64,000 nucleotides of DNA from Escherichia coli O157:H7 (GTDB lineage Bacteria; Pseudomonadota; Gammaproteobacteria; Enterobacterales; Enterobacteriaceae), in assembly GCF_013167455.1 (NCBI RefSeq), contig NZ_CP038328.1. One strand, given 5' to 3'. The position numbers are program-made. Shown here in pieces: positions 60,101-63,100 of the stretch (its first letter is position 1; the number at the start of each line of letters is the position of its first letter).

Positions 60101-63100
60101 CGGCCCAGATCTATGCCTTTCGATTTCAGGTAAGCGAGTGAGGGGCGCAAGCCGAAGTCGAATTGATATTGCGCCACCACTTCAAAACTTTGTGCTTTGT
60201 TAGAAATATAACCATCGCCATAGGTGGTCATGTTTAATGTTTCAGCGTAATTAGCTGCAAAGTAGATGTTGTTGGCATCATATTTTATACCTGTAGCCCA
60301 CAGTTCTGCATTCTTACCGGAGGCATTGAGAGGATTAGCAGCGGCTCTTTCCTGCGCATTTGTCCGATCGGATTTGGTATACACCGCTCCGATACCAAAG
60401 CCATCATAAACATAAGTTGAGGAGATACCGAAACCGTCACCGTTGGCACGCGTGTAGTCAGCACCATAAAGATGACTGTTGTCAGTACGTTCATTTTTGC
60501 CTTGATATTGCGCGGCAAAGTTCAGCCCTTCAATTAAGCCAAAGAAATCGTAGTTGCGATAGGTTGCTACACCGGTGGTACGGTATGTCATGAAGACATC
60601 TTTCTGACTCCAGGTATCGCCACCAAATTCTGGCAACATATCAGTCCATGAACCAATGTCATAGCCGACACCGTAGTTACGGCCATAGTCCAGAGAGCCA
60701 AATTCACTAATTTTTAAACCAGCATAGGCCAGACGGGTCTTGTTGTCGCGCGAGCCGTTGGCTTCATCGTTATAGCCTTTAAAATCATATTCCCAGTGAC
60801 CAAAACCAATCATTTGATCATTGATTTGCGTTTCTCCTTTAAAGCCGAGACGGGCATAAGTTTTATCACCATCGTCACGCTTATCATCAGTAAAATAACG
60901 TAGAGCGGTAACCTTGCCATAAAGGTCGAGTTTATTACCATCCTTGTTATAGACTTCGGCAGCGTGTGCTACGTTCGCAGCTAACAAACCAGTTACAACC
61001 ACCGCAACTATTTTTAATTTCATTTAACAGAATCCTTTTAATTATCGTTAAACGTATTTTTTAAACGAATTTTAAACGGCGCCATTTATAAATGACATAC
61101 TGTTTTTAAATTAGAATGGTGATTAAAAACAATGAGAAAAATAGATGAAATAATATTATTTATCGATATGTGATCGGAGTCGAAATGAGATATAAGGTGA
61201 ATTACTGGTATTTGAAATTTATTTTTTAATATTGTCGGGGTTTATCTGATTAATTGCCGGGCCGTAGACCCGGCAATTATTTTAGCCACGACGTGTCGCC
61301 AGCCAGCAGAGCAGGGAACCGCCGCAGACCATCAGCGCGCCTTGCCAGAACGAGAACGACAGCGGGGCGCTGAGCAGCACGGCTGCAAGCGCTGAGGAAA
61401 GTACGGGCGTAAAATACGAACCTACCGCCATTATGGTGACGTTGCCATGCAGTATACCGACATTCCATGCAGCATAAGCAAATCCTAAGGTAAATGCCGC
61501 AGAGATGAGTTTAATCATGACTGGCGTGCTAAATACCATTTCTGGTTGTGGCGTGAGAAAATAGTAAACCCACAGACTTGCTCCCGTTAGCAGGACAAAA
61601 ACGGTAATTCCGTTAAATCCGCGTGCGTATTTATTCGTTACTGTGCAGTAGGCTGCCCAGATAAACGCACCAATGAACGCCAGGAAATAACTCAATGGGC
61701 TGGTGGTGATATTATTGATGATTTCATCATAATGTAACCCATTGTCACCGCCTAACACCCAGCAGACGCCGACGAGGGCTAATAATAATCCTGGTACAAT
61801 CAGCCAGTTGGTTTTCTGACCATTAAACAGAATGGCAAAGAGAATTGTCAGGCTGGGCCACAGATAGTTCACCATACCCACTTCAATCGCCTGATGACGG
61901 GTCGCCGCATACCCTAAGGAAAGCGCCAGACAGATTTCATAGCTGACGAATAACAGACTCCCGGCGAGTAAATAGCCTTTCGGGATTTGCCGAATACGCG
62001 GAAATCCAACCGTGAAGATTAACAGCAGCCCGCTTAATGAATAGATAGCAGCTGCGCCACCGACCGGGCCGAGCCCCTCACTGACACCGCGAATCAATCC
62101 TACCATCGTGCTCCACAGGACGATCGCTATTAGCCCTATGAGCGTTGCTTTTTGTCGTGTCATGCTCGCTGTTTTGTCTCTCTTGCCGTTAAAAATTAAG
62201 CTGAATTTTATAGCATTTTTTTAACTGGCCTGTCAGGCAGTGGTGCGTTTTTCTACCGCTATTGAGGTAGGTCAATTTGCGCAGGCGGATTATTTTGTGG
62301 CAAACACGTGTTCTTTTTGATTTCGCGCAAAAAGATTCAGAATTTTACTGTTAGTTTCCTCGCGCAGTAATACCCCTGAAAAAAGAGGAAAGCAATGGAC
62401 GTCAGTCGCAGACAATTTTTTAAAATCTGCGCGGGCGGTATGGCTGGAACAACAGTAGCGGCATTGGGCTTTGCCCCGAAGCAAGCACTGGCTCAGGCGC
62501 GAAACTACAAATTATTACGCGCTAAAGAGATCCGTAACACCTGCACATACTGTTCCGTAGGTTGCGGGCTATTGATGTATAGCCTGGGTGATGGCGCGAA
62601 AAACGCCAGAGAAGCGATTTATCACATTGAAGGTGACCCGGATCATCCGGTAAGCCGTGGGGCGCTGTGCCCGAAAGGGGCCGGTTTGCTGGATTACGTC
62701 AACAGCGAAAACCGTCTGCGCTACCCGGAATATCGTGCGCCAGGTTCTGACAAATGGCAGCGCATTAGCTGGGAAGAAGCATTCTCCCGTATTGCGAAGC
62801 TGATGAAAGCTGACCGTGACGCTAACTTTATTGAAAAGAACGAGCAGGGCGTAACGGTAAACCGTTGGCTTTCTACCGGTATGCTGTGTGCTTCCGGTGC
62901 CAGCAACGAAACCGGGATGCTGACCCAGAAATTTGCCCGCTCCCTCGGGATGCTGGCGGTAGACAACCAGGCGCGCGTCTGACACGGACCAACGGTAGCA
63001 AGTCTTGCTCCAACATTTGGTCGCGGTGCGATGACCAACCACTGGGTGGATATCAAAAACGCTAACGTCGTAATGGTAATGGGCGGTAACGCTGCTGAAG

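Follow-up and report, generated by a model that had tools for sequence, protein, structure and literature searches.

UGA codon 196 of fdnG in Escherichia coli O157:H7, almost certainly a selenocysteine codon, is followed by a SECIS hairpin conserved with it across species

The SECIS of fdhF, the gene for formate dehydrogenase-H, is the experimentally dissected model of a bacterial SECIS; in this element, a bulged U contacts SelB, and the G and U of the loop are the bases that SelB reads. An 11-nt spacing between the UGA and the stem-loop is reportedly a functional requirement. For fdnG of E. coli K-12, a full-length, roughly 113-kDa, selenium-containing product has already been reported, and both SelB binding and selenium-dependent UGA read-through are said to have been demonstrated. 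The Sec196 codon and SECIS of K-12 fdnG (RF01989; 1kqf) represent the same gene and the same element as those analyzed here, with the strain background alone differing. The recoded UGA and the SECIS of fdnG are already known and constitute a textbook case of bacterial stop-codon recoding.

Reviews of this process describe how SelB-GTP-Sec-tRNA(Sec) binds the hairpin, how the lower helix is unwound, how the UGA is served in competition with RF2, and how the hairpin refolds (PMC13188914, PMC4513850). In the window, by which we mean the whole 64-kb stretch of E. coli O157:H7 DNA that was analyzed and to which the coordinates below refer, the mRNA just 3' of the fdnG UGA (62983-63027) would accordingly fold as a bacterial SECIS hairpin, whose upper stem-loop would be bound by the C-terminal domain of elongation factor SelB carrying GTP and Sec-tRNA(Sec). 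The 11-nt spacer would set the SelB complex at the ribosomal A site when the UGA arrives, the ribosome would unwind the lower helix, and the hairpin would refold behind the ribosome. The tRNA(Sec), which is the selC product and has the anticodon UCA, would then decode the UGA while competing with release factor 2, and the ribosome would continue to the end of the 1015-residue catalytic subunit. The analyses described here make it almost certain that the TGA at 62980-62982 is the Sec196 codon of fdnG, with a 3' SECIS hairpin (62983-63027), and is decoded by SelB and tRNA(Sec); that SelB binds and selenium is inserted in this particular strain is something we infer from the established E. coli K-12 work. 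None of the observations made here runs counter to this reading.

The window contains the first 1606 nt of the 3048-nt fdnG coding sequence, with the remainder lying past the window end:

62395..64000, + strand: 5' part of fdnG, formate dehydrogenase-N alpha subunit (from translation, TIGR01553, 1kqf_A and RefSeq)
62980..62982, + strand: UGA codon 196, with hardly any doubt recoded as selenocysteine (only internal stop; X196 of 1kqf_A; homologues)

The ATG at 62395 starts the fdnG ORF, and the TGA at 62980-62982 lies in the same frame as codon 196 and is the sole internal stop. The first-pass annotation had described the frame as open and conserved across this TGA, which was borne out by the 339 further codons that remain open to the window end at 64000 and by the homologues considered below. 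Translation through the TGA reads ...DNQARV-stop-HGPTVASLAPTFGRGAMTNHW..., and a twin-arginine signal, SRRQFFK, is present at the FdnG N-terminus. Residue 196 of FdnG is the molybdenum ligand of the enzyme. When Cys was put for the stop, the N-terminal 535 residues alone scored 904.7 bits on NCBIfam TIGR01553 (formate dehydrogenase-N alpha subunit, equivalog) against a cutoff of 814.2, covering profile positions 1-533 of 1009, which places the protein in this family. FdnG residues 1-535 aligned with chain A of the solved E. coli structure, PDB 1kqf, with 2 differences, and the deposited chain has a non-standard residue, X, at position 196, aligned with the TGA of the window.

The 1.8 kb around the TGA was 100% identical to fdnG in many E. 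coli O157:H7 genomes. In a genome with a base-for-base identical fdnG stretch, the 3048-nt CDS has one internal stop (codon 196), with 48 and 65 stops in the other two frames across the same CDS, and RefSeq annotates the identical stretch as one uninterrupted 1015-aa CDS followed by fdnH and fdnI. If the TGA were instead a real stop, fdnG would be a pseudogene or would encode a 195-aa product upstream of a separate ORF; a mechanical ORF list does end an ORF at 62982, and the window has true TGG to TGA nonsense changes in two other genes, rimL and yddH. However, another 819 codons remain open, which the stop counts of the other two frames set in relief, and about 5,425 E. coli genomes show no variation in the TGA or its 59-nt context. 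In addition, sites listed from many genera keep the TGA or else have Cys, the solved structure has its non-standard residue at this position, and a SECIS lies downstream. A genuine stop at codon 196 therefore appears extraordinarily unlikely.

The SECIS itself also speaks for a selenocysteine at codon 196. Only a single SECIS-family match was found in the 64-kb window, both at the gathering threshold and at E<=10, and this match, at the fdnG TGA, was full-length for Rfam SECIS_3 (RF01989; model 1-59 of 59) and scored 84.3 bits (E=3e-20) against a gathering score of 63, which makes the element a member of this family. When the window was searched with a pattern consisting of UGA, an 11-nt spacer and the upper stem-loop, the fdnG site had 0 mismatches, and no other site was found with 3 allowed. 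The SECIS match at the fdnG TGA is more than chance. Its parts are as follows:

62977..63035, + strand: Rfam RF01989 (SECIS_3) match
62982..63027, + strand: whole SECIS hairpin, made up of lower helix, upper helix and loop (from the MFE structure and the frozen synonymous block)
62994..63011, + strand: upper stem-loop GGUAGCAAGUCUUGCUCC, beginning 11 nt after the UGA, with a GG/CC base, a bulged U, a 5-bp stem and a GUC loop
62996..62996, + strand: bulged U of the upper helix, without a partner in either the MFE structure or the Rfam consensus
63002..63004, + strand: apical loop GUC, whose bases come 19 nt after the UGA (62983-63001)

The arms of the lower helix are 62982-62992 and 63017-63027, and the 11-nt spacer after the UGA (62983-62993, CACGGACCAAC) is part of the 5' arm, pairing with 63017-63027. 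The SECIS_3 score and the 11-nt spacer agree with the first-pass proposal of a hairpin at the distance expected for a bacterial SECIS. While that hairpin is present, the end assigned to it, 63022, was wrong; this end cuts the 3' arm of the lower helix, because the full hairpin runs to 63027. By analogy with fdhF, the upper stem-loop at 62994-63011 would be the minimal element that SelB binds.

RNA folding had been proposed as the check on this hairpin. The hairpin did form when 62980-63030 was folded, with an MFE of -14.6 kcal/mol, but its stability was not significant in comparison with 200 dinucleotide shuffles (z = -0.76), 41 of which folded as well as the native sequence. The folding energy of the fdnG hairpin is not unusual for its composition, and stability by itself proves nothing. 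A test for a stable hairpin does not discriminate because homologues with a Cys codon at position 196 fold equally stably, at -15 to -23 kcal/mol, but into other shapes. It is the specific hairpin geometry and the covariation that count, rather than stability.

With regard to geometry, the consensus model of bSECISearch has an apical loop of 3-9 nt, an upper stem of 4-16 bp, a G at loop position 1 or 2 that is usually followed by G or U, a UGA-to-loop distance of 16-37 nt, and an MFE of <= -7.5 kcal/mol (PMC13188914). The fdnG element falls within all of these bounds, having a 3-nt GUC loop that begins with GU (63002-63003), a 7-bp upper stem with one bulge, a UGA-to-loop distance of 19 nt and the MFE of -14.6 kcal/mol, the last of which is non-discriminating for this element given its z of -0.76. 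The layout is also of the fdhF type, with the upper stem-loop 11 nt 3' of the UGA and a bulged U. The fdhF element from K-12, a SECIS_2 (RF01988) match of 87.1 bits, likewise consists of a UGA, an 11-nt spacer (CACGGCCCAUC) and then GGUUGCAGGUCUGCACC, and it shares with fdnG the GG...CC base, the bulged U after the GG and the GU in the loop. In contrast, the stem and loop differ between the two (UGCA/GGUC/UGCA in fdhF vs AGCAA/GUC/UUGCU in fdnG), as does the lower helix, and on SECIS_2, with its gathering score of 70, the fdnG element reaches no more than 28.8 bits.

Covariation was assessed among homologues from a cross-species scan of one genome per GTDB species, which gave at least 120 stretches with 118 usable sites. 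The scan pattern held conserved codons fixed and left the wobbles, the Ser and Leu codons, and the choice between TGA, TGC and TGT free; since 20 bases are fixed in this pattern, only the positions left as N count as independent evidence. Among the matches listed, codon 196 was TGA in 114/118 sites and TGC or TGT (Cys) in 4/118, the latter providing the alignment of Cys with UGA by which a selenoprotein is recognized. All 7 pairs of the upper helix were standard in 69/69 distinct TGA-bearing 59-mers from these matches. Two of the pairs vary across the 69 homologues listed: 62997/63009 was GC in 49, AU in 16 and GU in 4, while 63000/63006 was AU in 50, CG in 16 and GC in 3. Both variable pairs join third-codon positions on either side of the helix; the changes are compensatory and leave the amino acids unchanged. 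None of 500 shuffles reached the observed covariation, and moving the 3' partners by 1-3 columns reduced pairing from 91-92% to 26-56%. The wobble of the Thr codon at 62994, whose partner is C63011, was G in 69/69 homologues listed, and the loop, at its free positions, was GUC in 64 and GUU in 5 of them, with GU kept in all 69. Position 62996 was U in all 69 homologues listed as well, but this base was fixed by the search pattern.

The synonymous sites of this region are constrained. In Photorhabdus, Providencia and Yersinia, 20/20 third positions of the SECIS codons were those of the window, compared with about 45% (40-53%) in the flanks. When 32 distinct loci sharing the enterobacterial-type upper hairpin were compared, identity at synonymous sites was at least 0.92 over 62979-63027 and at background on both sides. 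The frozen synonymous block at 62979-63027 coincides with the hairpin.

The Cys-codon homologues serve as a natural control, albeit a small sample (n=4). These Fdh-N-type proteins belong to the same family and have nearly the same active-site peptide (TVAALAP), but TGC or TGT replaces the TGA, Ala replaces Ser at the loop codon, and the SECIS hairpin is absent. None of the 7 upper-helix pairs appeared in their MFE structures, other codons were used, and their synonymous-site identity was at background level. Judged from these sequences, the pattern is what would be expected if the hairpin serves the UGA and not the protein. The hairpin is thus missing where a Cys codon has taken the place of the UGA, which shows that the two behave as one unit.

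Within E. coli, the SECIS_3 59-mer was 100% identical in 5432/5433 records, whereas the surrounding 1.8 kb was only 95-99% identical in 4334 E. coli records; the 59-nt stretch is also identical in K-12 strains. The one exception is a strain without fdnG, whose match is fdoG with one mismatch. E. coli O68:H12 97.3 has no fdnG, only fdoG, and PGAP labels that fdoG 'fdnG'. A paralogue at another locus, fdoG (formate dehydrogenase-O, K-12) adjoins fdhD/fdhE and has 77% DNA identity to fdnG over the first 1.6 kb; its 59-mer is identical and likewise scores 84.3 bits on SECIS_3. The two genes share a perfect 71-nt run at 62977-63047 (fdoG: L010 4241-4171, minus strand), which starts 3 nt 5' of the TGA and continues for 20 nt after the hairpin has ended; the second-longest run is 28 nt. 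Between fdnG and fdoG, 17/17 synonymous sites within the SECIS match were identical vs 57% outside (P about 6e-5).

In a rival reading, the hairpin would have no function as an RNA signal and would be a by-product either of coding constraint on the protein or of conversion between the two paralogues. In its favor, the peptide HGPTVASLAPTFGRGAMTN is itself highly conserved, and a 71-nt identity that extends 20 nt past the hairpin could reflect conversion. The constraint, however, is on synonymous sites, with the two variable pairs covarying while the amino acids stay the same, and the Cys homologues encode nearly the same peptide with other codons and have lost the pairing. Moreover, paralogue conversion cannot explain the frozen block because the block is also seen between genera, where it stops at the hairpin boundary. 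We therefore consider a by-product very unlikely and read the hairpin as an RNA signal that goes with the UGA.

An element extending past the hairpin, as the fdoG identity up to 63047 might imply, was also considered and rejected, with synonymous constraint between genera decaying after 63027-63030. Because this constraint fades after about 63030, the extra fdnG-fdoG identity beyond the hairpin might stem from local gene conversion or from codon preference.

The lower helix was about 85% paired in the 69 homologues listed, in two mutually exclusive registers. The Rfam consensus register, which leaves A.G and A.C mismatched in E. coli, fits the Pseudomonas/Burkholderia type, and that type only, without mismatches, whereas the MFE register fits E. 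coli better; over all 69 homologues listed, neither register was better. Register follows the wobble bases 62988, 63021 and 63024 (alignment columns 12, 45 and 48), a triple that was mainly A/U/C (enterobacterial, 20 sequences) or C/C/U (Pseudomonas/Burkholderia, 19 sequences) among the matches listed. The registers track clades, with GGA...GGUCGC in the enterobacterial type and GGC...GGCCGU in the Pseudomonas/Burkholderia type. Throughout the 46-nt hairpin, all synonymous sites are frozen in Enterobacterales, whereas minimal-SECIS experiments reportedly found a need for no more than 17-18 nt. A sequence-specific role for the lower helix in vivo, e.g. in the timing of unwinding at the ribosome entrance or through co-evolution with the SelB of the clade, would be one reading of these patterns, though we regard it as rather improbable; no description of such a role was found in the papers that could be searched.

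Decoding of the UGA as selenocysteine also calls for the sel genes, which lie outside the window and whose presence was established in genomes with identical or near-identical sequence. In O157:H7 PV15-279, whose fdnG stretch is identical, selB, selA, tRNA-Sec and selD are all annotated as intact, the tRNA-Sec gene having the same sequence as in K-12 and an integrase after it; selA and selB are also intact in strain 272, another genome whose fdnG matches at 100%. Each of selA, selB, selC and selD was present in 5424-5425 of 5426 complete E. coli genomes, O157:H7 relatives included. The sel genes that the first-pass annotation had named for confirmation were thus all found in the closest genomes, and the set that goes with a selenoprotein is complete in relatives of the window.

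Several observations on the distribution of these genes were made along the way. Counted per query, no fdnG/fdoG, selAB or selD match was found in one of the 5426 complete E. coli genomes, and a few fdnG, selC and selD matches sit on records typed as plasmids. In an O157:H7 relative (NZ_AP018488.1 4680824-4682295), an intact selC is followed directly by a tyrosine integrase and IS elements; selC is a well-known island integration site.

Rather than tRNA(Sec), a near-cognate tRNA (Trp or Cys) might be thought to read the UGA in a leaky UGA-C context. The base after the stop is indeed C, and UGAC is the weakest RF2 context in E. coli. Yet this UGA has a dedicated SECIS, related genomes have the complete sel machinery, and the homologues without Sec have a Cys codon and no hairpin, such that near-cognate decoding is exceedingly improbable as an explanation. 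Low-level misreading of the UGA may occur under selenium starvation, not as an evolved function. Decoding by tRNA(Sec) remains the reading we adopt for codon 196.

Two other TGAs of the window contrast with that of fdnG:

10272-10274, + strand: rimL TGG to TGA (Trp to stop), relative to PV15-279, in which the gene is annotated as intact
46538-46540, - strand: yddH TGG to TGA (Trp to stop), relative to PV15-279, in which the gene is annotated as intact

Indels, with an offset of 31 nt at opgD, and these two nonsense changes set the window apart from PV15-279. Its first 25 kb is 100% identical to other O157:H7 strains, e.g. ECP19-598 (100% identity to window 1-25000), whose annotation gives rimL as a pseudogene ('internal stop'). 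Neither the pattern with 3 mismatches nor the Rfam SECIS models at E<=10 detected a SECIS-like sequence at the rimL and yddH TGAs, just as the first-pass annotation had held. These TGAs are strain-level pseudogenization, not recoding.

The Rfam search of the window also returned three RNA features of other kinds:

44292-44409, + strand: group-II-D1D4-2 (RF01999), 90.1 bits against a gathering score of 36
3106-3257, - strand: sok antitoxin RNA at the hokB locus, 111.5 bits, at the Rfam gathering threshold
2483-2546, - strand: sRNA RydC, 92.5 bits, at the Rfam gathering threshold

Downstream of a VgrG/Rhs core gene, an IS1 remnant and an ISAs1/H-rpt (ydcC) pseudogene flank an unannotated gap; the RF01999 match lies in this gap and is probably a fragment of a group II intron. 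Fragments of this kind have long been known in the Rhs/H-rpt mobile DNA of E. coli. Both sok and RydC are expected in E. coli.

Biologically, the fdnG UGA offers nothing new; its value is as a positive control against which the nonsense TGAs of rimL and yddH can be set. A covariance-model match together with the comparison of Sec and Cys homologues separates a recoded UGA from a nonsense TGA, whereas a test of hairpin stability does not. The apt tests for a recoded UGA are a family-specific model, covariation at synonymous sites, and the Sec/Cys comparison.
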